Assembly: GCA_964428655.1 (NCBI GenBank) | Contig: CAYRYE010000001.1 | Coordinates: forward strand, 312,406-376,405 | From: an uncultured Gammaproteobacteria bacterium | Lineage (GTDB): Bacteria; Patescibacteriota; Microgenomatia; UBA12405; JAHJSD01 | Direction of reading: 5' to 3' | DNA length: 64,000 bases | Shown here: piece after piece, positions 3,728-34,822 of the stretch | Position numbering within the stretch: the stretch's first letter is position 1 | Layout of the letters: every line of letters starts with the position of its first letter | The notes under the pieces: generated by a model | The model's database searches: none | Told to the model about the DNA's origin: nothing | Seen by the model: the letters and a program-made list of their open reading frames with translations, nothing else | Made by a program: the position numbers and the translations under genes

Positions 3728-4419
3728 GATCTAGTTGATTCCAGAAACAGTTTTTCCAGTGAATGGCGTTTTCGTTTTAATTTACTGATTTCTTTTTCGG
3801 CAACAAGCTTGCCTTTGTGAATGATGATTATTTTCTGACAAACGGCCTCGGCCTCAGATAAGATATGGGTTGAGAAAATAACTGCTTTGTTTTTAGCAAT
3901 CCTTTTAATTAAAGTTTTGATTTCTGCTTGTTGGTTGGGGTCAAGGCCGCTGGTTGGTTCATCCATGATTACCAATTTAGGATCATGAATTAAGGTTGCC
4001 GCCAGCCCCACTCTTTGGCGGTAACCGCGGGAAAGAGTCTCAATTGTTCTGGTTAAAATATCTTCAATACCACAGTTTTTAGCAACATAATTGATTCTTT
4101 CCCCAAGAGATGACTTTTCAATTTGATGCATTTTGCCGATAAAACTTAAATATTCCAAAGGAGTGAATTGAGAATAGAGGGGATTTTCTTCAGGCAGATA
4201 ACCGATTAAATGGCGCGCTTGGTCAGGCGGCAGTTTATTAATAGTCACTTTTCCTTTATTTGGCTTAAGAAAACCGGTAATTAAACGCATTGTAGTTGTT
4301 TTGCCGGCCCCATTTGGCCCCAAAAAACCCACAATCTCTCCGGCCTTGACTTTGAAACTAATATTATTCACGGCGATTAAATCGCCGAATTCTTTACTAA
4401 GTTTTTTCGCCTGGAGCAT
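3724..4419 (-). CDS. ABC transporter ATP-binding protein (GldA-like)
   Basis: Walker A GPNGAGKTT, signature LSRGYRQRV, Walker B IMDEPTSGLD. Confidence 0.85.
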   Translation of the reverse strand: MLQAKKLSKEFGDLIAVNNISFKVKAGEIVGFLGPNGAGKTTTMRLITGFLKPNKGKVTINKLPPDQARHLIGYLPEENPLYSQFTPLEYLSFIGKMHQIEKSSLGERINYVAKNCGIEDILTRTIETLSRGYRQRVGLAATLIHDPKLVIMDEPTSGLDPNQQAEIKTLIKRIAKNKAVIFSTHILSEAEAVCQKIIIIHKGKLVAEKEISKLKRKRHSLEKLFLESTRS

Positions 4420-20797: not shown

Positions 20798-21337
20798 TTA
20801 TCTCTTAAGATCTTCTGGTTTTAAACTAGTGTACTTTTTTAACAGTTCACCGTAAACCGGCTCATCTTTCAGTGAATCTCTTGATAGATCTACAAAACAT
20901 TTCATCTTTTCTAATAAACTGAAGTATTTAGACTCATCCTTTACTAAAGGGTAATAATCGCTATTGTCGAGGATATCCGCAGCTTTAATTATCAAAGCGT
21001 CTTTTCCGGCTTTCAAACAGCGGTCGAATGTTTCTTTGTATTTTTGCTGTCCCTCATCTTTTATAGACTCATCGAAGCTATTAGCTTTAACAAGATCAGC
21101 AACGTTGGTGCTGAACAAACTTTCAATTTCTTCAAGCCTTGTCTCGGAATCTTCCAACAGATCGTGCAATAAGGCCGCGATAACAATTTCCGTTGAGTAT
21201 TTTTGGGATTCTAGATAGAAAGCGACTCTAATACTATGCAGGATGACAGGCTTGGTATTGTTGCCGGATTTCTCTATTGCCTTCACTAAATATTTAATCG
21301 CTTTCTCGATTTTGAGACTATCGTCATAACTTCTCAT
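20798..21337 (-). CDS. HD-domain (p)ppGpp hydrolase-like protein (SpoT/Mesh1-type small alarmone hydrolase)
   Basis: HSIRVA...AALLHDLLEDS motif typical of the RelA/SpoT HD domain; 179 aa. Confidence 0.55.
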   Translation of the reverse strand: MRSYDDSLKIEKAIKYLVKAIEKSGNNTKPVILHSIRVAFYLESQKYSTEIVIAALLHDLLEDSETRLEEIESLFSTNVADLVKANSFDESIKDEGQQKYKETFDRCLKAGKDALIIKAADILDNSDYYPLVKDESKYFSLLEKMKCFVDLSRDSLKDEPVYGELLKKYTSLKPEDLKR

Positions 21338-21512
21338 ACAAGGATGATAGCATGGCTTCGTTGAGTATCATTTTTTTGATACAATGACCCAGAATGAAAA
21401 ATGTTGTTAAGAGAGTAGCCGTGTTTGCCGATTTTTTAACCGGTGCCAGCAGGACCAAGGTAACAACTAGCCAAAAGAAAAAGTCCAACCAACCCCTAAA
21501 AGACTTGTTCAA
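21324..21512 (-). pseudogene. fragment paralogous to the membrane protein at 23150-23572
   Basis: About 55-nt DNA identity (about 88%) between 21443-21497 and 23347-23400; encodes WLDFFFWLVVTLVLLA vs WLDFLFWLVVALILLA; TTG start. Confidence 0.3.
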
Positions 21513-21695
21513 TAGGCCTTAGCAAATATGACTTTTGTTTTAGTAGGTTTTCCAGAAAAAACACATTTACCAGATTTCCCTTGATCAAAAGGAATACACC
21601 TTACCGTAGCTTTAATTTCATTTTTTATCTTTTCTTCTGCTTCAACGTCTTCCTTAAAATAAGCCAAAACAAAATTATTGTTATTTATTTCCTTT

Positions 21696-22955
21696 TTAAA
21701 TTCTTCCCCATGTCTTTACTTCTTTTGTTTTCTTTTTTCTGAAAGCTAATGCTTTTTCATAAAGACTTTCTTGAATATTCTCAAGTTCTTTCCCTATTTC
21801 TTTTTTAAGAACCTTAAGTTCAACAGATCTTTTCTCCCCATTATCACGACGAGCAATTGAAACAGTTCCTCCTTTTACTTCTCTTGGTCCAAGTTCTATT
21901 CTTAAAGGAACACCTTTTCTTTCCCATTTATAAAACTTTTCTCCTGGATGTTTATCAGATAAATCAATCTGTACCCTAAAATCATTTTCTAACTCTGACA
22001 AGAGTTCTTTTGCTTTCTTTATTACTAAATCCTTATCTTTTTCGCTTGGACAAATTGGGACAATCACAACTTGAACAGGTGCTACTTTAGGAGGTAAAAC
22101 TAAACCTACATCATCACTATGAACCATTATAATCGCACCAATAACTCTTGTACTCATACCCCAGCTGGTTTGATGACAATAAGTAGTTTTCCTATCTTCA
22201 TTCGTAAATTGAATACCAAAAGGTTTGGCAAAATTCTGACCTAAATCATGAGATGTTGCCAACTGCAAAGCTTTCCCATCTTGCATCATTGCCTCTAAAC
22301 AATATGTATCTTTTGCTCCAGCAAATCTTTCTGAATCTGTTTTAAGACCATCGATTATTGGTATAGCTAAAACTTCTTTTGCAAAGTCCTTGTAAACTTT
22401 TAACATTAAAAGCGTTCTTTCTTTTGACTCTTTAGCCGTAGCATGAACAGTATGTCCTTCTTGCCATAGGAACTCTGTTGTTCTTAAAAACAATCTTGGT
22501 CTTTTTTCCCACCTTACAACATTCGCCCACTGATTAAGTAAAATAGGTAAGTCGTTATAAGATTGAACCCATTTTGAAACAGTGTCATAAATAATTGTTT
22601 CAGAAGTAGGTCTAATAATAAGAGCTTCTTTAAGTTTCTTGCCTCCAGCATAAGTAACAGCTGCAATTTCGGGAGAAAAACCTTCAACATGTTCCTCTTC
22701 TTTCTTAAGAAATCTTTCAGGAATTAATAAAGGAAAGTAAGCATTGACGACACCTGTTTTCTTTATTCTTTTATCGAAACTCCTTTGTATTAACTCCCAC
22801 ATAGCATAACCATGAGGCTTAATAACCATCGATCCTTTACTTGCGCCATGTTCAGCTAATTCAGCTGTTCTAATAATATCTAAATACCATTGAGAAAAAT
22901 CTTGATCTCTACTTACAACTCCTTCTTCCTTTTTATCTTTATTTTTCATTTTCAT
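21696..22955 (-). CDS. proS: archaeal/eukaryotic-type prolyl-tRNA synthetase; the C-terminal domain continues in another frame to 21509
   Basis: Class II motifs; the downstream frame 21509-21715 encodes the ProRS C-terminal domain ending in the conserved terminal Tyr (...KVIFAKAY*). Confidence 0.85.
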   Translation of the reverse strand: MKMKNKDKKEEGVVSRDQDFSQWYLDIIRTAELAEHGASKGSMVIKPHGYAMWELIQRSFDKRIKKTGVVNAYFPLLIPERFLKKEEEHVEGFSPEIAAVTYAGGKKLKEALIIRPTSETIIYDTVSKWVQSYNDLPILLNQWANVVRWEKRPRLFLRTTEFLWQEGHTVHATAKESKERTLLMLKVYKDFAKEVLAIPIIDGLKTDSERFAGAKDTYCLEAMMQDGKALQLATSHDLGQNFAKPFGIQFTNEDRKTTYCHQTSWGMSTRVIGAIIMVHSDDVGLVLPPKVAPVQVVIVPICPSEKDKDLVIKKAKELLSELENDFRVQIDLSDKHPGEKFYKWERKGVPLRIELGPREVKGGTVSIARRDNGEKRSVELKVLKKEIGKELENIQESLYEKALAFRKKKTKEVKTWGRI

Positions 22956-23149
22956 AATTTAAAACTTGTTCGAGGATCAATATATTCAACTTTATTGTCT
23001 TCCTGTCGAACTATAGCTATTTTACTATATCCTACTACTTCAACAACCCCATTCTCTAAAAAGATCCCACTATTCTCAGGCATAGAAAAAGCTGTTCCAT
23101 GAAAGTTCGTTAAGATATTTTTGTAACCATTAGTCTTTTCATAGCTCAT
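22952..23149 (-). CDS. small hypothetical protein (65 aa) coupled upstream of proS
   Basis: Start/stop overlap with neighbours; no recognisable motif. Confidence 0.3.
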   Translation of the reverse strand: MSYEKTNGYKNILTNFHGTAFSMPENSGIFLENGVVEVVGYSKIAIVRQEDNKVEYIDPRTSFKL

Positions 23150-23572
23150 TTATTCCCGAGTTTTTCTATAAAGGAAAATTATAATTCCTAAAAAAAGGGG
23201 GCTAAAAATAAGTAAAGCATACTCTCCGTATGGATTCGGTTCGCCTTTAGTTATATCATGTAATGCTGCCCAGTTTAAGGCAAGAGTCACCAGTGCAGTT
23301 GCAACAAGAACTGTCTTTTTCATTGAAAAATTGAACTTGCTAAATCTTTTAAAAAGTGCCAGCAGGATCAAGGCAACAACTAGCCAAAAGAGAAAGTCCA
23401 ACCATAGCCCTTTGTATTGAATAATCTCAACATAGGAGGGGTCTCTCCATTCGTATCGCAGCCAAGCAAGAGGCCAGCCAACTTGGTTTATAAAATAGGT
23501 GCCAATAGTAATTGCCCCTGCTAAGAAAACGGAAAGAAAGGCTAAAAATGGAGGAACGACTTTTCTCATCAA
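23150..23572 (-). CDS. hypothetical polytopic membrane protein
   Basis: Four hydrophobic segments; source copy of the repeat fragment at 21443-21497. Confidence 0.4.
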   Translation of the reverse strand: MMRKVVPPFLAFLSVFLAGAITIGTYFINQVGWPLAWLRYEWRDPSYVEIIQYKGLWLDFLFWLVVALILLALFKRFSKFNFSMKKTVLVATALVTLALNWAALHDITKGEPNPYGEYALLIFSPLFLGIIIFLYRKTRE

Positions 23573-23679
23573 GATAAGTATACCTTTTTTGGTTTTACTC
23601 CCCCTATTGGACGTATTCAGAACCCGTAAGGTTGAGTTTGAAGTTACTTTACCTGAGCTTAAAAATAACCTTAGACTAC

Positions 23680-24042
23680 TTAGTTTCCAATTTGTTTAGC
23701 CTCTTTGCTAGCATTTTTCTCTTCAAGAAGCTCTATTTTTAGTTCAATTTCTTTAATCTTGTCATTTCTTATTTCAATCTCTTCATTCATAAACCTACGT
23801 TCCTCCTTGAGAATTACCTTGTGCTCTTTGTATGCCTCAGTCCTGTAAACAAAAGCATCTATTACAAAGCCCACAAAACTAACAAGAAAAACAATGATTA
23901 CTGCAGTCATTAATATAAGAAGAAACTTGTTTTGCTTTGATAGACGGTCAACCTGTCTTTGCACCTTAACCATCACGTCTTTTTTGTCTAGTGGTAGCGG
24001 TATCATTTTGTCCTCTAATTTTTTTTTAAGTACCATTTTCAT
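23680..24042 (-). CDS. hypothetical membrane-anchored coiled-coil protein
   Basis: Central TM segment, charged flanks. Confidence 0.3.
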   Translation of the reverse strand: MKMVLKKKLEDKMIPLPLDKKDVMVKVQRQVDRLSKQNKFLLILMTAVIIVFLVSFVGFVIDAFVYRTEAYKEHKVILKEERRFMNEEIEIRNDKIKEIELKIELLEEKNASKEAKQIGN

Positions 24043-24256
24043 AAAATCCTCTTATTACTAATATTGAACCTTTTTTTTCAACAGCCAAATCAAAGGATTG
24101 ATATTTATGAAAGTCTACGCCACCAAAAGAAACACCTTTGGCAAAGGTTACACCTGTTCCAAACGTAACACCGTTAACTTTGATTACATGCTTTGGGGTT
24201 AAGGAGTCGTCTGAATTTAGGCTAAAAATATCGAGAAATTTTTTTCTTTGTATCAT
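24026..24256 (-). CDS. small hypothetical protein with a Gly/Val/Thr/Phe-rich repetitive core
   Basis: ORF only. Confidence 0.2.
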   Translation of the reverse strand: MIQRKKFLDIFSLNSDDSLTPKHVIKVNGVTFGTGVTFAKGVSFGGVDFHKYQSFDLAVEKKGSILVIRGFYENGT

Positions 24257-24363
24257 TACTTTACTGACTTTGCATTAATTATTACCTGTAGTTTATATAA
24301 TAATATCACAGAAGCTGATAAAATAAGACAAATAAAGTTGAAGATGTAATGAAATGAACTACG

Positions 24364-24412
24364 AAGAAAAACTTGATATTATGATGTCATGTTTAAAAAA
24401 TGCTTCATTTTT
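24364..24412 (+). repeat. direct repeat copy 1 (about 45 bp, 2-3 mismatches) of the promoter/start region of the 26903 gene; encodes a truncated MFKKCF... start
   Basis: aaaaacttgatattatgatgtcatgtttaaaaaatgctt vs 26881-26919 aaaaacttgatattatgatgtcatgcttaaaaaatgctt. Confidence 0.7.
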
Positions 24413-24453
24413 AAATCTACTCTAAGAGGTAAAAAACTCAGAAGCCTCTACTT

Positions 24454-24840
24454 TCATTCAATTACAGGAAGATAGACACAACGACAACCATATTTATGCA
24501 CACACCTTTCAATTGGGAGGGGGTTTTTCTTAAGAGCGTGGTCTATTAAAAATATTTTTCCATCTAATTTTAAACACCTCCCACAAGAACTACTATCCGT
24601 TAAAACCTCTACCTTTTTGGCCCCCTGAGTTTTCATTCTCTTAAGTTGCTCTTTTTGCTTTCTAAGTTTCATCTTGTAACCCAACTCCCTCATTTGATTT
24701 GGATCTTTACCTTCCTTAGTCAGAAAATCAGCCATCTCATAATAAACTGTTCCCATTCCATAAAAATCGCTGACCTTCATCAAGTCGTTGAGTTTTTTGT
24801 TAAAACGACGCCATTTTTCGTCGGGGGCAAGTTTAGGCAT
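24454..24840 (-). CDS. Cys-rich (zinc-ribbon-like) small protein, partner of the upstream HEPN gene
   Basis: C-terminal CGRC...x17...C..YGCRC; 8-nt gap to the HEPN ORF on the same strand. Confidence 0.4.
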   Translation of the reverse strand: MPKLAPDEKWRRFNKKLNDLMKVSDFYGMGTVYYEMADFLTKEGKDPNQMRELGYKMKLRKQKEQLKRMKTQGAKKVEVLTDSSSCGRCLKLDGKIFLIDHALKKNPLPIERCVHKYGCRCVYLPVIE

Positions 24841-24848
24841 TTTGAAAT

Positions 24849-25403
24849 TTAATATTCTTCATATTTTTCTATTATCCTTTGCTTAGCTTTTTTTAACTCC
24901 TGTGGAGATAAGAAACTCTGATATTGCCAAATTTTCCCATCTTTTGAAAAAGCTTGCAGGTAGCACTCGCAATAAATCTTTGGGTTTATTACAACCCTAT
25001 CCTTATTTTGCCTCCACCCTTTGCTTATTTTGTAGTCGTATTCGATTTTGTGTCCTCTGGAACTTATCCACTGATGAGCCAAAATATTCCTCCAATCATG
25101 TAAAACATGAGCTATTTTCGAAAATTTTCTGTCTTTCGATTGTCCGTCTACAAACTTTTCAAGAAAAGTTCGATAGCCTTCCTTCCCACTTTTGCCAAAG
25201 AGTGCTTCGGATATAGTTAGAGCAGCTGCATGGATACCAAGAAAAAGCAAAGAAGTCTGATGATGCTTTATAGTTAAAGAAATCTCGTTATTTAAAAAAT
25301 TATTAATTGAGTTAAGAAGTGTTTCTATTGCCTCAATTGGTGGTCCGCTCCTTAATCTTCTCAGCCGCCTAGCTTTAGGTTCCATATGTGCTCTATTCCA
25401 CAT
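24849..25403 (-). CDS. HEPN-domain protein (Rx4H motif), candidate RNase toxin / abortive-infection-like
   Basis: HVLHDWRNILAHQW contains R-N-x3-H in a predicted helical context; 184 aa. Confidence 0.45.
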   Translation of the reverse strand: MWNRAHMEPKARRLRRLRSGPPIEAIETLLNSINNFLNNEISLTIKHHQTSLLFLGIHAAALTISEALFGKSGKEGYRTFLEKFVDGQSKDRKFSKIAHVLHDWRNILAHQWISSRGHKIEYDYKISKGWRQNKDRVVINPKIYCECYLQAFSKDGKIWQYQSFLSPQELKKAKQRIIEKYEEY

Positions 25404-25676
25404 GTCTCAATTCTACCAGAACCTCTCTTTTCACAAAAATTACCAATTTTGCAGGCTCACGGAGGAGAAAATCTCAAATAATCCAAAAAACTTATTAAAC
25501 TGGGCTTTTCTTTTATTGGCTCCCTTTGGTTGACTTATTCCGCAACCAAAAAATTGAGCTTGATGTCAACCTAGGAGATATAAAAATACTGTTTGAAAGT
25601 TTAGGATTGTCCCAAAACAAACCTGTGTTTTTTGCTCTTTAGTAAGCCTCTAGCTTTGCCTTTGATAATTTCATGG

Positions 25677-26402
25677 TTACTCCACGGGGTAATCTGTTTC
25701 TATATCTCCTTTGTCCATCATTTCCAATTTACACTCCTTGTTTTCTTCTCCAGTTGTGGGATCCCAACACTTGTAGGCAATAGATATTTCGTCGATAAAG
25801 CCACTGCGATTTTCAGAATTTAGGGCAATCTCGAAAATTACTTCTTCTGAGACATTCAGCAGGGAAGACCAATCCGCGCTTAATAAGCTTCCTCTCCATC
25901 TATCGGCCCGAGTCTTCCAGTATTGAATCTCATTAAGGGGGAAGATATATTCTGAAAATTCCCTTCCGTCACCCGTTCCTATTTGATTCTCTGATTTTAT
26001 ATGCCCTCCAAAGTTATTGGGGTTAATATATACATTCTCCCATTTTTCCAAAGCTCCGTGGTCAGTGCCTACTCTAACCAATAAATAACCACAAGCTACT
26101 TTAGATTTTTTTGTTTCATTTTTGGTAACAACTTTTTGTAAATTAATAAACCTTCCCCCACTAGCAAACATAGATTTTCTACCATCTATAAGTTTTACTA
26201 TTTTGCCATCACTTTCTGTAAGGGAATTGTAGGACTGTGAATCTGCAGGACATTTAACACTTTCATATGCTGGGGTTGGGACAGAAGGCACTTCCTTAGG
26301 CCCATAGAGATTACGCACTGCATTCTGTATGAATGCGCCCGCTGTGATAATGCCTAATGTTATAACGGCGACTAAGCCACCTTTAATAATATTTTTATTC
26401 AT
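25677..26402 (-). CDS. hypothetical secreted/membrane-anchored protein
   Basis: Probable start MNKNIIKGGLVAVITLGIITAGAF (signal anchor); no known motif. Confidence 0.35.
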   Translation of the reverse strand: MNKNIIKGGLVAVITLGIITAGAFIQNAVRNLYGPKEVPSVPTPAYESVKCPADSQSYNSLTESDGKIVKLIDGRKSMFASGGRFINLQKVVTKNETKKSKVACGYLLVRVGTDHGALEKWENVYINPNNFGGHIKSENQIGTGDGREFSEYIFPLNEIQYWKTRADRWRGSLLSADWSSLLNVSEEVIFEIALNSENRSGFIDEISIAYKCWDPTTGEENKECKLEMMDKGDIETDYPVE

Positions 26403-26679
26403 ATGTTTTCTCTTTCTTAACAAGGAACCCCTGTAATATCCAAAGTATTCCGATTGCAAACGCTAGTGCAAAAACTAGCATAAAAGCATCATGAAACATA
26501 TTTGGAAATTCTCTCCATTTTGGCCAAATATACATTATTGCAGTAATCCCACTTATTAAAAGAAAAGGGTAGTCTATTTCCCCTTTTGTGATTATCAGTG
26601 CAATGAATCCTGAAGATGCCAAAAAAACCAAGGGGCTAAAAACCCACCTGTCAGGCGATTTTTGCATTTTACTTGACAC
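26395..26679 (-). CDS. small three-TM membrane protein
   Basis: Hydrophobic 94-aa ORF. Confidence 0.3.
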   Translation of the reverse strand: MSSKMQKSPDRWVFSPLVFLASSGFIALIITKGEIDYPFLLISGITAIMYIWPKWREFPNMFHDAFMLVFALAFAIGILWILQGFLVKKEKTYE

Positions 26680-26876
26680 TTGACTTAGATACTAACTCAA
26701 AACATATTAAAATACAATTAAATTAAAACTAAGGGTTAGCTTGTTACCAGACTGTTTGTAGATTGGCATATCAAGACTATTTTACCAAGAATTGATAAAG
26801 CATGACAAATAAAATAAATATCTAGCTTTACTCCGGGACTCTCCGGCGAGTGGCCGGTATGGCCTATTGCCTGCAA

Positions 26877-26925
26877 AGATAAAAACTTGATATTATGATG
26901 TCATGCTTAAAAAATGCTTTTTAAT
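26877..26925 (+). repeat. direct repeat copy 2, the intact promoter/start of the surface-protein gene
   Basis: See copy 1 at 24364-24412. Confidence 0.7.
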
Positions 26926-28144
26926 TTTTTTCTTCTTATTTTCACTCCCCTCACTATTTTTTCCAAAAATTTGCTCTGCTTTTTCCATTAAAAATTTGAG
27001 TGTTTCAGAAATTAATTCACCAGAAAATATTATTGAGGCAACTTTGGACCTAAGTGATTTACCAAGCAGCGCTTCTTATTTCCGAATCGCCTTTACTAAA
27101 AGTGATACTAACCCAAGTTATTTTGGAAAGATGAAAAACGATAAGGATGATTGGGTAGAAATAGGCCCACTCGGTGATTGTGACAATTATTATCGAATGG
27201 ATGAGTTAAACCAAGATGAACTGGTTCTTAGGATTAAAATGGGCAAAGAGGTAGAGTCAGGCACATATTTCCTAAGAGCACACCGCTTAACAGAGACTGG
27301 TTGTAGTCCAACTCCTACGAATTTTATTTCGATTGTGTATACTCCCTTACCAACTGCGATATTGCTGCTCCCGACTCCCACGGAGCCGTCTGGTGAAACA
27401 ACCAACATTCCAACTCCTACTAACACTCCAGAGCCTTTTTCAATCACTGCCAATTTTAATAGTTCTGTTTCAGCCGGAGAAGAATTTGATGTTAGTGTTG
27501 AAATCCAAAATGACGAAAGCGAGACAGAATATTATTTGAAGGCAAGGATTGGTGAAGATACTTCTGAGTTAACCAGAGGAGAAACTTATTCATCAGAGAG
27601 TAACAGTTGGCTTACTGACGGTAGCGCTTGGACAGAATTTCCAAAATTTACAACTACTGATGGAAGTTGGTCCGGCTCAGTTAAAGCAAAAGTAAAAAAT
27701 GACTCATCAGCAGGAGATTATTATTTAGTGGTAAGAGTTCGTGAGGTAGATGGTGGAAATAAAGATAGTGTTGAATATCAATTGACAGTTAGTTCGCCCT
27801 CTTCGCCAACATCCACCCCTACTCCAAACCCAACTACAAAACCCTCATCAACTCCTAAGCCAACCGCAACCAAAAAACCCTCTCCTACTTTAAAACCATC
27901 ACCCACTTTTGAGGCAACTCCATCTGGGGACATTGTATTTTCAACTGCTTCTGCTGGTAAAATTTTAGGTGAGTTTGGAGAGGCAACTGAGTCTGGTGAG
28001 GGCGATGAGAAAAAACAAAAGACAACTAATAGAATAGTTGCTGGAATTTTGATTGTTCTTGGCGGGGGATTAATATCAGTTGTTGGTTTTGCGCCAAAAA
28101 TTAAAGAGTTTCTCGAAAATAGAAAAGTGAGGCATGGAGAATAA
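26903..28144 (+). CDS. cell-surface protein with signal peptide, Pro/Thr/Ser-rich linker and C-terminal TM anchor
   Basis: N-terminal signal, PTPTPNPTTKPSSTPKPTATKKPSPT low-complexity stalk, C-terminal hydrophobic helix then basic residues. Confidence 0.5.
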   Translation: MLKKCFLIFFFLFSLPSLFFPKICSAFSIKNLSVSEINSPENIIEATLDLSDLPSSASYFRIAFTKSDTNPSYFGKMKNDKDDWVEIGPLGDCDNYYRMDELNQDELVLRIKMGKEVESGTYFLRAHRLTETGCSPTPTNFISIVYTPLPTAILLLPTPTEPSGETTNIPTPTNTPEPFSITANFNSSVSAGEEFDVSVEIQNDESETEYYLKARIGEDTSELTRGETYSSESNSWLTDGSAWTEFPKFTTTDGSWSGSVKAKVKNDSSAGDYYLVVRVREVDGGNKDSVEYQLTVSSPSSPTSTPTPNPTTKPSSTPKPTATKKPSPTLKPSPTFEATPSGDIVFSTASAGKILGEFGEATESGEGDEKKQKTTNRIVAGILIVLGGGLISVVGFAPKIKEFLENRKVRHGE

Positions 28145-28538
28145 AGTTAAAAAATCAATTCGTTTTTTCCTGCCTTTAATTTGGATGGGATTAATTTTTT
28201 ATGGCTCCTCTTGGCAAAAACCAACTACCTCTGGAGATTATTGGCTTAGTTTTATTTTTTTCAAAAGTTTACATATTATTGAATATGGAATTCTTTTTTT
28301 GCTTTGGAGATTTGCCCTATATAGCAAATCTTATAGCATTAAGGTGGCAATAGCTATTTCGATTTTCTATGGGATTACTGATGAGTTCCACCAAACCCTT
28401 GTTCCAACCAGAGAGGGGAAAATAAGAGATATTTTAATTGATGCCTTAGGAGTGGTAATTTTCTGGCGATTTGCTCTTAATAAAGCAGAGAGTTTTGTTG
28501 CCAAGAATAAGTTTTTAAAGAGGATATTTTTGTTTTGA
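28134..28538 (+). CDS. VanZ-like family membrane protein
   Basis: Four TM segments; motif GITDEFHQTLVPTREGKIRDILIDALG. Confidence 0.55.
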   Translation: MENKVKKSIRFFLPLIWMGLIFYGSSWQKPTTSGDYWLSFIFFKSLHIIEYGILFLLWRFALYSKSYSIKVAIAISIFYGITDEFHQTLVPTREGKIRDILIDALGVVIFWRFALNKAESFVAKNKFLKRIFLF

Positions 28539-28562
28539 CCTATTTTGTTATATTTTTGACCA

Positions 28563-28592
28563 TTGACAAAAGTTTTTTATTTGTTTCATAAT
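28563..28592 (+). promoter_or_regulatory. near-consensus sigma70-type promoter (TTGACA-N18-CATAAT) driving the TasA-like/SipW operon
   Basis: TTGACA at 28563-28568, CATAAT at 28587-28592; RBS aaaggagg at 28644-28651. Confidence 0.5.
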
Positions 28593-28659
28593 GAAGTAAC
28601 TTGCTCGTTGACGATAAAGATTAAAAATTAATTTTACAAAAAGAAAGGAGGTGAAAAGA

Positions 28660-29268
28660 ATGAAAAACATTTTAAAAAGTCTTTTTATAATTTCGGTGGC
28701 ATTGACAGTTATGAGTGTTTCCACTTATGCTGCTTGGACCGCAAGCGCTACTGTTCAGAACAACACTTTTAGTACCGGGAATGCAGCCTTGAGGCTTTAT
28801 GGTAATTTAGGAGGTGTTCCGGGAACTAATGCGGCCTTGACTCAAACTTTAGCCGGAAGCTCGTTTTCTAATCTTTACCCGAATTGGCAGCAAGATTATT
28901 TGGCAAAACTTTATAATAATGGCACAGTCAATTTGCAAGCGAGCGTAACAGGTGTTTATGTTTCAGAAGATGCAGATTTAAGAAATCGTATTTCTGTTGA
29001 AGTTTGGCAGTGGAATGATGAAGGTGATGGCACTACCGGTCCTGGAGACACTTATTCTTTATTGTCTGCAGCTCAGACTTTGCAGAGCTGGAGAACAAAT
29101 CCAGTTTCTTTAGGTCAGCTAGATGTTGGCAACACGGTTGGAGTTTTATTGAGATTTACGACAGGCGATCTGTCCAACGCATATCAAGGAAAAACAACAG
29201 TATTTGATTTTCTGCTTGATGGCACGACTACGGGAGCAACTCAAAGTACTCCGCCAACATTGCCATAA
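28660..29268 (+). CDS. TasA/camelysin-like secreted protein with a SipW-cognate-type signal peptide
   Basis: Signal peptide then AAWTASATVQNNTFSTGNAALRL, matching the A-x-F-[ST]...N-T-F-x-x-G pattern of SipW substrates; immediately upstream of a SipW-type peptidase. Confidence 0.55.
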   Translation: MKNILKSLFIISVALTVMSVSTYAAWTASATVQNNTFSTGNAALRLYGNLGGVPGTNAALTQTLAGSSFSNLYPNWQQDYLAKLYNNGTVNLQASVTGVYVSEDADLRNRISVEVWQWNDEGDGTTGPGDTYSLLSAAQTLQSWRTNPVSLGQLDVGNTVGVLLRFTTGDLSNAYQGKTTVFDFLLDGTTTGATQSTPPTLP

Positions 29269-29334
29269 TTCGAGGTTGGTGTTTTTTAGATTGCAAAAGC
29301 CTTGTGTTTTTGCAATCGCTGGAGACGCCAACTT

Positions 29335-29883
29335 ATGAAAAAATTAAAATTAGCAAAGACAGTAATTGGTACGGTTTTCTTTTTGTTTGTTTTGATCGTT
29401 GGGTCATTTGTTTTTCTTTCCGGTAAAAAAGATATTAATGGCTGGAGGTTTTTGGTGGTTAAGTCAGGCTCGATGGAACCAACAATAAAAACTGGCAGCC
29501 TCATCTTTATTAAACAAAAAGAAGAATATCAAGAAAGCGATATCGTAACCTATGGTCCAGTTACTCGGCCTGATTTTTTAGTTACCCACAGAATTGTTGA
29601 TGAAATTAGTGAGGGTGAAGAGAAATATTTTGTGACCAAAGGGGATTTCAATGAGAAGGAAGATGTGGAGAAGGTTTATTCTCAAGAAGTAATTGGAAAA
29701 TATCAGTTTGGAATTCCCTATTTTGGATATGTAATCAATTTTGCCAAAACTCGAGCTGGCGTTATTTTGTTAGTGGTCATTCCTGGCACTCTAATTGTTT
29801 ACGAAGAATTTAAAAACATTAAAAATTACATTTCTGGCCTTTTTTCGAAAATAAAAGAGAAAAAAGCAAAACAGGATCAATAA
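29335..29883 (+). CDS. sipW: signal peptidase I, archaeal/ER-type (SipW/Sec11 family)
   Basis: VVKSGSMEPTIKTGSLIF (Ser box), VTHRIV (His box), VTKGDFN (TKGDNN box). Confidence 0.8.
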   Translation: MKKLKLAKTVIGTVFFLFVLIVGSFVFLSGKKDINGWRFLVVKSGSMEPTIKTGSLIFIKQKEEYQESDIVTYGPVTRPDFLVTHRIVDEISEGEEKYFVTKGDFNEKEDVEKVYSQEVIGKYQFGIPYFGYVINFAKTRAGVILLVVIPGTLIVYEEFKNIKNYISGLFSKIKEKKAKQDQ

Positions 29884-31847
29884 TGAGGCGCTATTTGTAC
29901 CTTTTGTTGTGTTTGGTGTTAGTTAATTTTTTGGTTTTAGAAACTAATGCGGTGTTTACGGCGTCTACAGCGGTAGGAAGCAGTTCTTGGACTACCGGTG
30001 ATTGGACTCCGCCGAGTTCGGAGATAACTGATATTACCGGCAGTGGCAGTCTCGATCCAATTACTAATCTCAGCAGTTTTACTATTCATTACGAAGCAGC
30101 TGATTCTGGACTTGGCGTTCATTATGTTGAATTATGGTACTCCTATAATTATGGTGAGTGGCAGTATTTTGATAATGATTATCCTAGTTCAGCAGGAAGT
30201 TTTGAGTTTGATATGCCGGAAGGAGATGGCTTTTATGAATTTATTACTGTAGCAATTGATGAGTCTGGCAATGTGGAGGATCGAGATGGTGATGGGGAAA
30301 ATGACAATGCAAATCAGGAAGCCTTAAATAATGCAGCGTTTAGTTTGGAAGAAGACTTATGGATGATAGAAGTTGACACTCAAGCGCCAACAATGAATTT
30401 ATCTCTTGATGAATTTGGCAGTGATCGTTGGGCAGGTCAGGATTTATTAATTAATGGAAGCTTTGAAGAGGGTTCAAATGCTTGGTTAACCGGAAGTTTA
30501 GGCGATCATCATCTAGTTAGCGAAGGAGAAGATGATTTGGGAGATCCAATTTTGCCGGCAGAAGGTGAAAACATGTTTATTTTAGGCTTCAAAGATGCTT
30601 CGCCTTCAGACGAGGCAATTGATTGGTTATATCAAGATGTAGTTTTGCCGGTTAACATTTCCAGCAGCTTGAGTTTTTGGTGGCGGATGGTTAGTGAAGA
30701 TACGGTAGATTATGATCAGTTCTCAGTTTGGGTTAAAGATGATAATAATCATCCATTAGAGAGAATTTTAACTACTGGCTCAGGGGAAATTTGGGACATT
30801 TCTGCTTGGGACGGCGATTCTGGTTGGCAAGAAATTACCCATCCCTTGGTCAATTTTGCTGGCAGACCAATCCGAATTTGGTTTGAGTTAGTGGACAAGG
30901 GCGCTGATGATAAAAGTTGGGTTTACATTGATGGTGTTCGAGCAACTACAACCGATAACAGAATAACTGAAGAGAAAGAGATTGATTTTGAAGTTCACGA
31001 TGGTTCAGGATCGGGAACATTCGAAGCTAATTATGAGGTTGATGGAGTGCCATTCGGCGATTATTCAGGAGTTCCGTTTACTTTGGCTTCAGGTGATTAT
31101 GACATTGCCAATAGCGGAGAAGATGTGGCCGGCAACATTGAATCTCCAGAAACGGATGAACTGGTAGTTTTACCACCAATGGTCATTAACGCTTTTTCGG
31201 CCGCACCATCAATTGGTGATGAGTGGGTTGATTTGTACAACAATTCCAGTTCTCCGATAAACGTTGATGGTTGGCAAATTTGTGATTCTCTAAACCAGTG
31301 CCAAGGTTTGAGTTTAGGAAACTCGGAGAGCGGTGATACTTGGATTGGTTCCCACGATAGTTTGAGATTTTTGGATAATTTTCTTCTCAATAATCTTGGT
31401 GATACGGTAATTTTGAAAAATGACATGGCTGAGGAGCAGGATAGGTTTCTTTATCCTTCATTTGCTGGTGATTATAATTGGATCTGGCAGCGGAATCCTG
31501 ATGGCATTGGCAGTTGGGAATTAAACAAGCCAGAAATCGATGCTCATATTACCAGTCGCTACGATGAAGCGAATAAGATTTTGCTAACGATATTTAATAT
31601 TCCTGAAAATTATGGAGACGGTGATCTGATTGAATATGAAATTGTTTATAACAACGGAGATAGGGGAATTGCCGGAACTATTTTAGCGGAGACAGTTGAG
31701 AATGGTAAGGCGGATCGGGAGTTTTATCTGGGAACCTGCTCGGCTATGGGAGTTTGTACGCCGGATGAGGTTCCAACTAGAGAAGTTGAACTAACCTTGA
31801 CTCAAGGAATAACGGTAATTATTAATCAAAGAGAATTTGGTATTTAA
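29883..31847 (+). CDS. large secreted protein with a SipW-cognate-like N-terminus and a C-terminal lamin-tail domain (LTD)
   Basis: N-terminus NAVFTASTAVGSSSWTTG; C-terminal INAFSAAPSIGDEWVDLYNNSSSPINVDGWQICDS...LGDTVILKN matches the LTD pattern. Confidence 0.5.
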   Translation: MRRYLYLLLCLVLVNFLVLETNAVFTASTAVGSSSWTTGDWTPPSSEITDITGSGSLDPITNLSSFTIHYEAADSGLGVHYVELWYSYNYGEWQYFDNDYPSSAGSFEFDMPEGDGFYEFITVAIDESGNVEDRDGDGENDNANQEALNNAAFSLEEDLWMIEVDTQAPTMNLSLDEFGSDRWAGQDLLINGSFEEGSNAWLTGSLGDHHLVSEGEDDLGDPILPAEGENMFILGFKDASPSDEAIDWLYQDVVLPVNISSSLSFWWRMVSEDTVDYDQFSVWVKDDNNHPLERILTTGSGEIWDISAWDGDSGWQEITHPLVNFAGRPIRIWFELVDKGADDKSWVYIDGVRATTTDNRITEEKEIDFEVHDGSGSGTFEANYEVDGVPFGDYSGVPFTLASGDYDIANSGEDVAGNIESPETDELVVLPPMVINAFSAAPSIGDEWVDLYNNSSSPINVDGWQICDSLNQCQGLSLGNSESGDTWIGSHDSLRFLDNFLLNNLGDTVILKNDMAEEQDRFLYPSFAGDYNWIWQRNPDGIGSWELNKPEIDAHITSRYDEANKILLTIFNIPENYGDGDLIEYEIVYNNGDRGIAGTILAETVENGKADREFYLGTCSAMGVCTPDEVPTREVELTLTQGITVIINQREFGI

Positions 31848-33103
31848 TGAGAAAAACTAGACTGTTCATATTATTTCTTTTGTCTTTAGTCTTGCCATTT
31901 TTGACTGCGCGTATTGTTTTGGCTCAAGGAATTACGGTTGATCCGACAGGCCCCATTTTTCTGCCTAGTGAGATTTGGTATCCGGGAAAAAATCTTACTC
32001 GGGAAATTACGGTAACTAATAATGCGGACGTCATTCATTTAATTGGAATTAATTCGGTCAACGAGAGTGAGAGCAAAAGCTTGAGCCAGGTGATTTATCT
32101 TACTATTAGCGATGAAAGTTTTACTTGTAGATATGGCTGTGGATTAGATATTAAAAATTTGGCTCAGTTTTGGCAGGAAAGCAATTTGGACGGGATTTAT
32201 CTTGGCGATTTAAACGCTGGTTCTTCTGTTGACTATTATTTTTCCGCCACAATGGATCCTTTGGCTGGTAATCAATATCAAGAGGCGGTGGCAACTTTTG
32301 ATTTAGTGTTTGGTTTGGCACCGACATTGCCAACCCCCACACCAACGCCGGTTGTTGATGGGACAGTGGCTGGTGCGTCTACAAATGGAGATGATGGAGT
32401 TGGAGGGGAAGCGCCTTGTTCAGCCCCTGAGCCAGGGGCGCCGTTTAGTTTAACTGCCGCTCCTGCTGGAGTGGGCCAGATATTGCTTAGCTGGCTGCCA
32501 CCAACTACGGGAACAGTAACTCATTACGCTATTGTTTATGGCACTAGTAGTGGCAATTACCTTTATGGAAATACAAATGTGGGATCAGGAACAACTTATG
32601 TTGTTTCTGGCTTATCAAGCGGAGTTCGTTACTATTTTGTTGTTGTTGCCGTTAATGATTGTGCTGCTGGGCTTTATTCAAATGAAGCGAGTGCTGTTGC
32701 TGGGGGAGTTTTGGGAGTGTTTACTCCTGAGGAGCCGGCCGAAGAGTTTGAAGTTTTGGGTGAAGAGACTGAGCCGGGGCAAATTGCTGGTGGGGAATCT
32801 ATAGAGGTGGGCGGGGTGGAAGGAGCGGTAGCGGAGAAAGTGTGTTTTTGGTGGTTGGTTTTCAGCTTAATTGTTTTGGTTTTTAATACTTGGTATTTGT
32901 ATGAATATCGGGAGAGAATGAAAAGTGAGAAATGGCGCTGGTTTGTTTTGGCAATAACAGGAGTTTTGGCTTTTTTTGCTGATAGATTTATGCACCAATG
33001 GTGGATGCCGTCAAGATTTTGTCACTATATGTGGTTGTTAGCTTCGTTAGCCTTCGCAGTTCCGGGGGGAATTTGGCTATTTTATTGGCGAAAGGAAGAA
33101 TAA
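31847..33103 (+). CDS. secreted surface protein with TasA-like N-terminus, fibronectin type III domain and C-terminal TM region
   Basis: ITVDPTGPIF...ITVTNNADV; FN3-like LTAAPAGVGQILLSWLPPTTGTVTHYAIVYG...YYFVVVAVN; three C-terminal hydrophobic helices. Confidence 0.5.
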   Translation: MRKTRLFILFLLSLVLPFLTARIVLAQGITVDPTGPIFLPSEIWYPGKNLTREITVTNNADVIHLIGINSVNESESKSLSQVIYLTISDESFTCRYGCGLDIKNLAQFWQESNLDGIYLGDLNAGSSVDYYFSATMDPLAGNQYQEAVATFDLVFGLAPTLPTPTPTPVVDGTVAGASTNGDDGVGGEAPCSAPEPGAPFSLTAAPAGVGQILLSWLPPTTGTVTHYAIVYGTSSGNYLYGNTNVGSGTTYVVSGLSSGVRYYFVVVAVNDCAAGLYSNEASAVAGGVLGVFTPEEPAEEFEVLGEETEPGQIAGGESIEVGGVEGAVAEKVCFWWLVFSLIVLVFNTWYLYEYRERMKSEKWRWFVLAITGVLAFFADRFMHQWWMPSRFCHYMWLLASLAFAVPGGIWLFYWRKEE

Positions 33104-33145
33104 GCTTGCCATTTCTTTCAAGGAAAGTGTAATATGTTGGTAGAA

Positions 33146-34009
33146 ATGAAAAAGTGGATTAAGTCTTTGTTTATCCCCCAAGAGGAAAATAATTATCAAG
33201 CCAAGATTCTTCACCCTTCGTTCTTGGCCGCCTTTGTTTTCTTGTTTCTGCTTAACCAGACTTTAATAAACTTTGTCGCTTTACTGCGGCCTGGAATTTT
33301 AGGATACTCTTCAAATATTACTCCGGAAATGATTATTGAATTGACTAATAGTGAGAGAGTCAAACAAGGATTGTTGCCGGTTGAAGTAAATAACCTTTTA
33401 AACGAAGCGGCTCGTCGTAAAGCCGGCGATATGTTTGCTTTTGATTATTGGGCCCATAAATCGCCATCCGGAAGAAACCCTTGGTCATTTTTAAAGGAAG
33501 CTGGCTATGATTATCGGGTTGCGGGAGAAAATTTAGCCAGAGATTTTTATGATCCTGATTCAGTAGTGGGAGCTTGGATGAAATCCCCGACACATAAAGA
33601 AAACATTATTAACTCGAAGTTTAAGGAAATCGGAGTAGCGGTTGTTGATGGTACTTTGGGAGGTATTCAAACTACCTTGGTAGTTCAATTTTTTGGCACC
33701 CCAACAAATTTTGTTGCCGCTGATATTTTTAGGCAAAAGGAATTATTAGAAACTGTTCCGAGCTTTTCCAAACAAGAATCAGGAGTATTATCAGTTGAAG
33801 AGAAAACTTTGATTAGTCCGCTTAGTTTAACTAGGGGATCAAGCGCCTTTTTCTTTGGTTTGATAGTGGGTGCTTTAGCAATTGATGGCTATTTGGTTTT
33901 TAAAAAGCGGATTTACCGATCAACTGGGAGAACAACAACTCATGCTGGGTTTTTAGCTGTTATGTTTTTGCTGATTTTACTGAGCGGCAGTCCGGGACTG
34001 ATAAATTAA
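33146..34009 (+). CDS. CAP/SCP (PR-1-like, YkwD-type) domain protein with flanking TM segments
   Basis: LLNEAARRKAGDM...WAHKSPSG...GENLARDF...VGAWMKSPTHKENII CAP motifs. Confidence 0.65.
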   Translation: MKKWIKSLFIPQEENNYQAKILHPSFLAAFVFLFLLNQTLINFVALLRPGILGYSSNITPEMIIELTNSERVKQGLLPVEVNNLLNEAARRKAGDMFAFDYWAHKSPSGRNPWSFLKEAGYDYRVAGENLARDFYDPDSVVGAWMKSPTHKENIINSKFKEIGVAVVDGTLGGIQTTLVVQFFGTPTNFVAADIFRQKELLETVPSFSKQESGVLSVEEKTLISPLSLTRGSSAFFFGLIVGALAIDGYLVFKKRIYRSTGRTTTHAGFLAVMFLLILLSGSPGLIN

Positions 34010-34024
34010 CATTAATTATTAACA

Positions 34025-34315
34025 ATGATTATTGAAGAAGTAGCTGACTTTATTTCAGGCGAGCTTAAAAAACACCCTGAAGATTTTTTGATTTTAGCCA
34101 TATTTTTTATTTTGGCAATTGTTAATTTTTGGATCTTTTCTTATGATCATACTTTTCAAAAGTGGATAATATTTGCAACCGGTGCAGGTTATTTCCTTTG
34201 GGGTGTTTTTCATCATTGGCGTAAAAAAGATCTTTGTATGAAAATAGCTTTGGATTATTTCCTGGTTTCGGCCCTTGGAGTAACAGCAGCTATATTCGTT
34301 CTCCTTCGCGGCTAA
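34025..34315 (+). CDS. small membrane protein
   Basis: Three hydrophobic helices, 96 aa. Confidence 0.3.
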   Translation: MIIEEVADFISGELKKHPEDFLILAIFFILAIVNFWIFSYDHTFQKWIIFATGAGYFLWGVFHHWRKKDLCMKIALDYFLVSALGVTAAIFVLLRG

Positions 34316-34330
34316 TGTTATAATATACTC

Positions 34331-34822
34331 ATGACTAGTTATTTTCTAAATCCAACCAAGGGTAAATTATCTTGGAAAGATCTGGGTAAGGAGATTCAAG
34401 ATTTTATTGTCTCAGGCCCGGATGAGGATTATCAGTTGATTATTGGCTCTGATTCTCGAGGCAAGAGCTATCGAGGCAGGCCTGGTCTTGATTTGGTCAC
34501 TGCTATTGTTATTCATCGTAAAGGCAGGGGCGGCCGCTATTTCTGGTCTAAGAGAAAAGTTGCCAAAGTCTATTCTTTAAAAGAAAGGCTTTATCATGAA
34601 ACAATTGCTTCTTTAGGAATAGCCCGCAAGCTTATGGGTGTTTTAAAAGATGATTTAAACGGTCAATTTGAAGCGTTGGAGATTCATATTGATATTGGTG
34701 AAAAGGGCCCTAGCAGGGAGATGATAAAAGAGTTGGTAGGAATGGTTAATGGCAATGGATTTAGAGCCAAAACTAAACCAAAAGCTTATGCCGCTTCCAG
34801 TGTTGCTGATAAATATACTTAA
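34331..34822 (+). CDS. DUF458/YkuK-like RNase H-fold protein (tentative)
   Basis: About 160 aa with LIIGSDSRGK and HIDIGEKG segments resembling the YkuK family; from memory, unverified. Confidence 0.35.
   Translation: MTSYFLNPTKGKLSWKDLGKEIQDFIVSGPDEDYQLIIGSDSRGKSYRGRPGLDLVTAIVIHRKGRGGRYFWSKRKVAKVYSLKERLYHETIASLGIARKLMGVLKDDLNGQFEALEIHIDIGEKGPSREMIKELVGMVNGNGFRAKTKPKAYAASSVADKYT

Follow-up and report, generated by a model that had tools for sequence, protein, structure and literature searches.

A TasA-like, SipW-linked operon that most likely builds a cell-surface fibre in an uncultured bacterium

Fibres of the TasA superfamily that assemble by donor-strand exchange are already known from Bacillus and several archaea. 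In the TasA fibre, residues 28-38 form the donor strand and residues 39-47 a linker (PMC9674648), and the first strand is donated to TasA by TapA (PMC9674648, PMC10151520), a role that has also been proposed for AbpB (PMC9245690) and TafC (PMC11821415, PMC12337348). For haloarchaeal Tafi and for AbpX loci, modelling has led to the proposal of a layout with tip, shaft and anchor. The Tafi model comprises TafC as tip and activator, TafE as adapter, TafA/TafE as shaft, TafF as terminator and anchor, and TafD as a dedicated Ser/His signal peptidase I; TafF has an N-terminal pilin-like domain of ~140 amino acids (aa), three C-terminal transmembrane helices and a signal type unlike that of the other subunits (PMC11821415, PMC12337348). 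The shaft subunit exceeds its initiator by ~100:1 for TasA:TapA (PMC9674648, PMC10151520) and by 100:1 for TafA:TafC (PMC11821415, PMC12337348). In AbpX loci a TIGR02228 peptidase is accompanied by cell-wall anchors and by predicted tip and minor subunits, with one TasA superfamily proposed for all, and the Trp at mature position 2 of AbpX clamps the donor strand (bioRxiv 10.64898/2026.01.04.697558). PF12389 homologues in Patescibacteria were mentioned in one sentence by Wang et al. 2022 (PMC9245690), and literature queries pairing SipW with CPR (candidate phyla radiation), Patescibacteria or Saccharibacteria gave no mention of SipW among the matches listed. Here, a 64,000-nucleotide (nt) stretch of DNA from an uncultured bacterium was analysed (the window, whose own numbering is used for its coordinates), and the region 28563..33103 was found to be an operon that most likely builds a cell-surface fibre. 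Its four genes, which occupy 28660..33103, encode a TasA-like protein (P1), a signal peptidase and two large secreted proteins (P3 and P4), and all genes of this cassette lie on the + strand.

The reading that is held to be probable, though with a good deal of room for doubt, is that the cassette specifies a Sec/SipW-dependent fibre assembled by donor-strand exchange, with P3 as tip and initiator, P1 as the polymer and P4 as the anchor. Profile, fold, alignment and synteny computations show the homologies, the limits of the domains, the conserved split of the TasA unit, the gene fusions and the gene order, and from these we infer the cleavage sites, the polymerisation with its polarity and order, the adhesin role of P3 and the role of a hairpin after P1.

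Donor strand and acceptor core in P1, P3 and P4

P1 is a divergent member of the TasA superfamily, as established by transitive profile homology, profile matches among PDB sequences and fold; the superfamily takes in TasA, AbpX, AbpA, CanA, thread and Tafi. A word-based search with P1 returned only six close relatives, and an exhaustive HMMER search with a profile of these six gave 451 cluster representatives at E<=1e-3. Among 74 full-length members of the P1 family, 27 match PF12389 (Peptidase_M73, the family of camelysin and TasA; best 4e-16), and P1b, a TasA-like paralogue found at the same cassette position in two related loci (L013 and L014), is assigned to PF12389 in precomputed Pfam annotation. 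When the 74-sequence family profile was searched against PDB sequences, the top matches were TasA (5of1/8aur, E 0.003) and AbpX (9sj2, E 0.004); the larger profile was required, as the 6-sequence profile gave nothing meaningful. The AlphaFold2 (AF2) model of P1 (predicted local distance difference test score (pLDDT) 73.8, predicted template modelling (TM) score 0.71) matched the TasA fibre 8aur_A first in a Foldseek search of the PDB (E 4e-4, TM 0.48), with AbpA 7ueg third and CanA also present, at modest scores. An earlier note on this DNA, made from the sequence alone, had called P1 TasA/camelysin-like and had proposed a predicted structure for comparison with TasA; the fold match and the superfamily assignment bear this out, whereas a direct match to Peptidase_M73 is absent and P1 itself does not reach the PF12389 gathering score.

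The N-terminus of P1 passes the NCBIfam model TIGR04088 (cognate_SipW), the cut-off of 19 bits being exceeded by the whole protein (20.1) and by its N-terminus taken alone (24.0). Through the family profile, the segment TYA/AWTASATVQNNTFSTG (the slash marks a predicted cut, here and below) aligns with TasA A28-T43 and carries an aromatic residue at mature position 2. P1 is presumed to polymerise into fibres by donor-strand exchange. An EF-hand-like loop, D-x-[DN]-x-[DN]-G-x-[ILV]-D-x-x-E, follows a conserved Trp in 14 of the 74 P1-family proteins (alignment A2) and may connect the family to the calcium-responsive AbpX/CanA fibres; in P1 of the window this calcium loop (aa 119-131, nt ~29014-29052, NDEGDGTTGPGD) is shortened and degenerate. 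Contig scans of a genome set and a metagenome set with the P1 alignment gave one locus each, both of the same contig family as L004/L005, and pattern scanning with the wider alignments, A2 and A3, was precluded by their diversity.

Searching the P1-family profile against all six-frame open reading frames (ORFs) of the window placed the three cassette genes at the top: P1 (1.6e-64), P4 (4.3e-7) and P3 (1.7e-3), with the next ORF at 0.32. The parts of the profile that P3 and P4 match are complementary, with P4 aa 45-156 corresponding to positions 73-190 (the core) and P3 only to positions 2-42 (signal peptide and donor segment). Nine further distinct loci with P1 relatives were compared, and a recognisable P3/P4 pair was present in eight loci, the window included. 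Across these eight, the P3 counterparts match only profile positions 1 to 42/52, and the P4 counterparts match the core only (positions 43/73 to 190; E 1e-13 to 1e-6, with one weak case) and never positions 1-42, the best of them beginning at position 43/44, directly after their own signal peptide. Via the profile alignment, the split maps to approximately T43/L44 of TasA. The TasA unit is thus divided, with P3 holding the equivalent of TasA 28-43 alone and P4 that of residue 44 onward alone, which amounts to an unusually clean natural dissection into one protein with the donor strand only and another with the acceptor core only.

In P3, the donor-strand-like segment (aa 24-43, VFTASTAVGSSSWTTGDW; predicted cut TNA/VFTASTAVGSSSWTTG) is followed by Ig-like, beta-rich and lamin-tail (LTD, aa 434-524) domains and then by a conserved Cys-containing C-terminal module. 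Its resemblance to P1 was measured by an ungapped BLOSUM62 scan of the P1 20-mer TYAAWTASATVQNNTFSTGN against the 33,266 20-mers of the six-frame window ORFs: the best non-self match was the P3 N-terminus TNAVFTASTAVGSSSWTTGD with a score of 40, the next scoring 25. The A-x-F-T-A-S likeness of P1 and P3 therefore exceeds chance. The earlier note had extended this likeness to an ITVTNN segment of P4, which does not hold, as ITVTNN is a core strand of the TasA-like domain equivalent to AKLYNNGT of P1 and no signal-class motif. P3 orthologues share the motif [ST]-N-A/[VYF]-F-[TS]-[AD]...V.....[FW]-x-[TS]-G, after which come DW-x-x-P and an Ig-like domain, and the L004 orthologue, whose N-terminus is nearly that of P3 in the window, scores better on profiles. 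No TasA-like core was detected in P3 by the P1-family profile, and Pfam and NCBIfam scans gave no hidden Markov model (HMM) match to the TapA family.

The lamin-tail domain, which the earlier note had recognised in one of the large proteins, is present in P3 near threshold (32.0 bits, slightly below the Pfam cut-off of 34.3), and an OmpL47-type barrel is sub-threshold at 27.7 bits. Precomputed Pfam annotation places LTD on the P3 counterparts of L004/L005, L007, L013, L014 and L015 and gives none on those of L011 and L012. Identities between the window and L004 are 55% for P1, 59% for the peptidase, 33% for P4, 40% for the downstream CAP protein and only 23% for P3, and this much faster divergence of P3 than of its neighbours fits an exposed, possibly adhesive tip. 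At the C-terminus of P3 (aa ~555-654, nt ~31545-31847) lies a module of ~100 aa, Y-x-I-x-Y ... L-G-T-C-S ... C, without a family match; the same module ends all P3-type proteins, including the minimal fused ones (C-termini of L006 x320 and L010 x314). What stays invariant in the tip protein appears to be the donor strand together with this C-terminal module.

P4 consists of a TasA-like core without donor strand (aa ~27-165), a Pro/Thr linker, an FN3 domain (aa 198-282; fn3 39.5 bits, cut-off 25) and, at the C-terminus, about three transmembrane helices (aa 326-413; hydrophobic stretches 326-351, ~362-385 and 394-413), in agreement with the FN3 protein with a membrane anchor described in the earlier note. 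P4 proteins begin A/[AV]-D-L-x-V, with ordinary A-x-A-type sites and no aromatic residue. Residues 38-62 match the BsaA family TIGR04090 weakly (E 0.042, 13.6 against a cut-off of 60), and a word-based search with the N-terminal domain found one relative only, P0177. For the AF2 model of this domain (pLDDT 75.1), the top Foldseek matches were FimA, AbpA, the TasA fibre and the Sulfolobus thread. P4 thus has the features of a TafF-like protein, an N-terminal pilin-like domain without donor strand and C-terminal transmembrane helices, a likeness of domain layout.

The same proteins could instead form a fibre that is released into a biofilm matrix in the manner of B. subtilis, with P1 nucleated by a TapA-like P3 and with P4 an independent membrane protein that happens to have a TasA-like domain. 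P1 does belong to the TasA superfamily and the N-terminus of P3 is donor-like in the manner of TapA, TasA fibres of Bacillus are matrix components, and the Tafi authors also weigh unanchored 'nonfinalized' chains. This alternative is nevertheless considered rather unlikely, because P4 is probably translationally coupled to P3 and is kept after it in eight loci, and because P4 always lacks exactly the donor segment yet retains the core, a pattern that is hard to explain absent a strand-accepting role.

The signal peptidase and the proposed assembly

The second gene encodes a signal peptidase I of archaeal/ER type. It passes TIGR02228 (archaeal-type signal peptidase I; 113.1 bits, cut-off 51.85) and falls below the cut-off of the bacterial-type model TIGR02227 (24.2, cut-off 47); against the Bacillus SipW equivalog model NF046067 it scores 139.9 bits, under the cut-off of 190, and is thus the same enzyme type but not an equivalog. 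The SGSMEP (Ser), HRI (His) and TKGD boxes align with those of human SEC11A/SEC11C, so that the Sec11/SipW-type assignment of the earlier note is upheld, and hydrophobic segments lie at residues 3-34 and 136-159. P1 and P3 share the predicted site T-x-A/x-[W/F]; in TasA, an aromatic residue at P2' is reported to make the general peptidase LepB inefficient (PMC10269814).

Linkage of the peptidase to a TasA-like gene is conserved in all of the diverged loci that were examined. In L004/5, L007, L013, L014 and L015 the order is TasA-like gene, peptidase, large LTD protein and P4-type protein. L011 and L012 have two adjacent TasA-like genes, and there the peptidase domain is either part of the large downstream protein or split off from it. 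The gene order is permuted in L006 and L010, with two peptidase copies within the cassette, one of them a separate free gene. Four loci (L006, L010, L012 and L013) have a single-ORF fusion of a complete peptidase domain, an extra transmembrane segment, the donor motif and downstream Ig-like or C-terminal modules, and in L011 (9304-11825) apparently the same fusion is broken by a frameshift. The topology of the fusions is self-consistent, since the extra helix would replace the signal peptide and put the cleavage site outside the cell. The earlier note had set peptidase-substrate linkage against a housekeeping enzyme without cognate-profile substrates; linkage was found in all loci examined, and the fusions in four to five of them argue against a purely housekeeping peptidase and provide independent genetic evidence for a SipW-type enzyme dedicated to the system.

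A general signal peptidase, whose neighbours are abundant secreted proteins held in place by inherited gene order and have no dedicated substrate relation to it, would be in keeping with two observations: the 64-kb window yielded no further signal-peptidase box, and the cassette lies inside housekeeping synteny (PrfB, FtsEX, M23 peptidase), which makes gene order alone weak evidence. It is thought very improbable, given the one-ORF fusions to donor-motif proteins, the second peptidase copy in the L006 and L010 cassettes, the SipW-cognate HMM match of P1 and the site common to P1 and P3, of a kind described as LepB-inefficient for TasA (PMC10269814). That P1 is a camelysin-like surface metalloprotease or another non-polymerising surface protein, with P3 and P4 as unrelated surface proteins, draws on the name of the Pfam family of its relatives (Peptidase_M73, camelysin) and is hardly credible, since the top sequence and fold matches (TasA, AbpX, AbpA) form fibres, the N-terminal strand common to P1 and P3 and exactly missing from P4 points to strand exchange, and no metalloprotease motif turned up, though no specific search for one was made.

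In the favoured donor-strand-exchange model, P1 and P3 would be exported by Sec and remain tethered by their signal peptides until the SipW-type enzyme cuts both at T-x-A/x-[W/F]-T-A-S, freeing N-terminal strands with an aromatic residue at position 2. The strand of P3 would complement the first P1, and each P1 would hand its own strand to the next. P3, with a strand but no TasA core, could donate and not receive, which would make it the initiator and place it at the distal tip, where its Ig-like and lamin-tail domains would probably act as an adhesin. At the other end, the core of P4 would receive the strand of the last P1 and, having none to pass on, would end the fibre and anchor it in the cytoplasmic membrane. 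A hairpin after P1 and the coupling of the downstream genes would probably leave P1 far more abundant than the other three products, as shaft subunits are in comparable systems.

Several results weigh against this model. TIGR04088, which the earlier note had proposed as a check on the three N-termini, is matched by P1 but not by P3, and P4, with its ordinary signal peptide, conspicuously lacks it. Among 10 N-termini of P3-type or fusion proteins from other loci, one passes this model (L015, 23 bits), one is sub-threshold (L014, 14.5) and eight give nothing, and a 20-column donor-only HMM left P3 of the window unreported, its match to the general donor profile being weak. P1 has no Pfam match at all, PF12389 being absent even at E<=10. 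The structural support comes from monomer models of modest confidence (pLDDT 74-75, TM 0.4-0.5), and the alignment behind the P4 model was padded with P1-family proteins, which may have biased it towards that fold. The cleavage sites of P1, P3 and P4 are predictions read by eye, the peptidase is the only one with a recognised signal-peptidase box in the window, and P4 may be self-complemented and act alone.

Locus layout, expression signals and neighbours

The features of the locus are collected in Table 1. The promoter-like site upstream of P1 is the top match within 26500..34400, and both this near-consensus promoter and the strong ribosome-binding site described in the earlier note are confirmed, the former as a consensus match only; promoter-like sites in this AT-rich region number 35, compared with 19.3 +/- 4.2 in shuffles. 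The earlier note had given a protein of about 200 aa, or 205 aa, and here the gene stands but its start does not: GTG 28651, the start of the 205-aa ORF, falls within the Shine-Dalgarno sequence, and gene callers give 202 aa on other contigs, so that the actual product is the 202-aa protein starting at the downstream ATG.

Table 1. Features of the fibre cassette and its surroundings (window coordinates), followed by the peptidase fusions of related loci (coordinates of the locus named)
Feature	Position	Strand	Description
Secreted protein and VanZ-family membrane protein (upstream pair)	26903..28538	+	413-aa secreted protein followed by VanZ-family protein
Promoter-like site	28563..28592	+	TTGACA-18 nt-CATAAT upstream of P1; 11/12 consensus positions
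Shine-Dalgarno sequence	28646..28653	+	AGGAGGTG, read from sequence; 6 nt 5' of P1 ATG 28660
P1, presumed shaft subunit	28660..29268	+	202 aa; divergent TasA/camelysin-superfamily protein; signal peptide aa 1-24 (predicted cut TYA/AW), donor-strand segment aa 25-41 (AWTASATVQNNTFSTGN), jelly-roll core to aa ~195
Stem-loop between P1 and peptidase gene	29273..29334	+	3' arm covers GGAG 5' of peptidase ATG
Signal peptidase I	29335..29883	+	182 aa; SipW/Sec11-type (archaeal/ER-type, Ser-His); N- and C-terminal transmembrane segments
P3, presumed initiator/tip	29883..31847	+	654 aa; signal peptide aa 1-23 (TNA/VF)
P4, presumed terminator/anchor	31847..33103	+	418 aa; ordinary signal peptide aa 1-26 (VLA/QG)
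CAP/YkwD-family protein (downstream)	33134..34009	+	Membrane-bound; CAP 63.3 bits; hydrophobic segments at both ends
Peptidase fusion ORF, L013	8680-9861		
Peptidase fusion ORF, L010	5358-6302		
Peptidase fusion ORF, L006	1703-2665		
Peptidase fusion ORF, L012	9389-12133		

A 66-base stretch separates P1 from the peptidase gene and folds as a long hairpin (-32.6 kcal/mol, z = -8.0), with none of 200 shuffles as stable. Comparable hairpins lie 3' of the TasA-like gene in L007 (~4153-4210), L014 (~10422-10476) and L004, and in an alignment that holds only three distinct sequences, 11 of 23 pairs stay paired despite changes on both sides. Conservation extends to the inner stem, UUGC...GCAA, which shows compensatory changes in three loci. 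The hairpin has no Rfam family match, and a scan of window positions 1-64000 at Rfam gathering thresholds found no RNA family, tRNA included. Occlusion of the peptidase ribosome-binding site by the hairpin was considered as a conserved trait and dropped, as it is true in the window but not in L007. The stop codon of the peptidase gene and the start of P3 overlap as TAATG, as do the stop of P3 and the start of P4, and because of these overlaps the three genes are probably translationally coupled.

Two repeated domains, Pro/Thr linkers and a transmembrane segment at the C-terminus are seen in the 413-aa protein encoded upstream, whose gene overlaps the start of the VanZ gene (VanZ: 48.6 bits in Pfam, 68.4 bits in NCBIfam). 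A pair of an LTD protein and VanZ lies directly upstream of the cassette in L012-L014, and the CAP protein also follows the cassette in L004/5 and L011-L014, with 39-60% identity. Both the 413-aa/VanZ pair and the CAP protein are possibly associated with the cassette. Housekeeping synteny is shared with the related loci in the order PrfB, 150-aa gene, FtsE, FtsX, M23 peptidase ... VanZ, cassette, CAP, small gene, RNaseH-like gene, and this long shared synteny indicates that the cassette is vertically inherited in a bacterial lineage with monoderm-type genes (sortase, SecA, FtsEX).

A minus-strand block at 20798-26679 breaks the M23-peptidase-to-VanZ synteny seen in L012-L014; it comprises genes for an HD-domain protein and for a class II tRNA synthetase as well as several small ORFs without family, and one ORF of the block (24454-24840) has a weak Phage_Mu_F-like match (E 5e-4). 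Sortase genes adjoin the cassette in L010 (8273-8836) and L015 (1668-2324), as in the C. perfringens bsa and bacterial abpX loci. LPXTG was not seen at the C-termini of P1, P3 and P4 by inspection, no motif search or sortase scan of the window having been made.

Proteins identical to those of the window occur on Joint Genome Institute contigs of 428 and 548 kb. L008 (DATKWX010000096.1), labelled 'Candidatus Bathyarchaeia archaeon', is nearly identical in content to L004/L005, which are likewise Joint Genome Institute contigs. An archaeal origin by way of this entry was considered and dropped, as the related contigs carry bacterial-type RpoB, SecA, FtsEX, PrfB and sortase, and the Bathyarchaeia label is probably a binning error. 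A CPR-like organism is plausible in view of the gene content, the low G+C and the small contigs. It is put forward only tentatively, as a possibility that we would not expect to hold in full, that the cassette encodes the attachment pilus of an ultra-small episymbiotic bacterium of CPR/Patescibacteria type: a vertically inherited Sec/SipW-dependent donor-strand-exchange fibre with a TafF-like polytopic terminator in the cytoplasmic membrane, a fast-evolving lamin-tail/Ig tip that sets host contact and, in some lineages, peptidase-tip fusions that process their own substrate. If the organism is an episymbiont, the fast-diverging tip P3 would be a concrete candidate for host recognition, and the trio of P3 peptide, P1 and P4 domain a small, directly testable in vitro assembly system.

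Comparison with known fibre systems

Relative to the systems already described, the locus adds the proposed three-part logic of tip, shaft and anchor for an uncultured and poorly known lineage of bacteria, in a form missed by current Pfam models, together with peptidase-tip fusions in some loci, a lamin-tail/Ig-like tip, a polytopic membrane anchor and Sec/SipW-cognate export.

The type 1 and P pili of the chaperone-usher class resemble the proposed fibre in donor-strand exchange, a tip adhesin and a terminator/anchor (the role of PapH), and FimA is the top fold match of P4. This is analogy, not homology: no chaperone or usher is present in the window locus, and the polarity is reversed, as the P3 tip has a strand without a groove and the P4 anchor a groove without a strand. 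The C. perfringens sipW-bsaA-bsaB-bsaC locus is likewise a SipW-led operon with one or more TasA-like polymerising proteins, a large accessory protein and membrane-attached oligomers; it differs in the isopeptide-locked polymers of BsaA and in a link to type IV pilus genes, neither of which was seen in the window locus.

With B. subtilis tapA-sipW-tasA, to which the earlier note had drawn the analogy, the locus shares a subunit of the TasA superfamily whose N-terminus is SipW-cognate and has an aromatic P2' residue, a SipW-type peptidase in the operon and an accessory protein whose N-terminus mimics a donor strand, TapA in the one and P3 in the other. The analogy holds for the TasA-type subunit and the peptidase but not for the layout. 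P1 falls below PF12389, the peptidase falls below the SipW equivalog threshold (139.9 against 190) and the gene order differs; P3 is far larger than TapA and has no TapA HMM match, and Bacillus has no membrane-anchored, donor-less TasA-like protein such as P4.

The AbpX/AbpA/AbpB family is closer. AbpX is among the top PDB matches of the P1 family and AbpA among the fold matches, abpX adjoins a TIGR02228 peptidase, AbpX has Trp at mature position 2, and tip, minor and anchor proteins are predicted for its loci. The EF-hand-like loop is present in many P1-family members, though degenerate in P1 of the window. The anchors described for bacterial AbpX are of the SLH or LPXTG cell-wall type, whereas P4 is a polytopic membrane anchor, and ten transmembrane helices are described for the AbpX-linked peptidase compared with two in that of the window.

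Haloarchaeal Tafi differs in being archaeal and exported by Tat, whereas the window cassette has Sec-type signals with a SipW-cognate motif; the window locus showed no gene for a TafE-like adapter, TafB or DUF5305 (TafG), and the TafC tip is laminin-G-like where that of P3 is lamin-tail and Ig-like. The proposed parts list is nonetheless the same in its tip initiator, strand-donating shaft pilin and dedicated Ser/His signal peptidase, and TafF and P4 are alike as anchors that begin with a pilin-like domain, end in three (in P4, about three) transmembrane helices and have a signal type unlike that of the other subunits. By this architectural analogy, the closest precedent for the locus is haloarchaeal Tafi or the AbpX loci rather than B. 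subtilis tapA-sipW-tasA.

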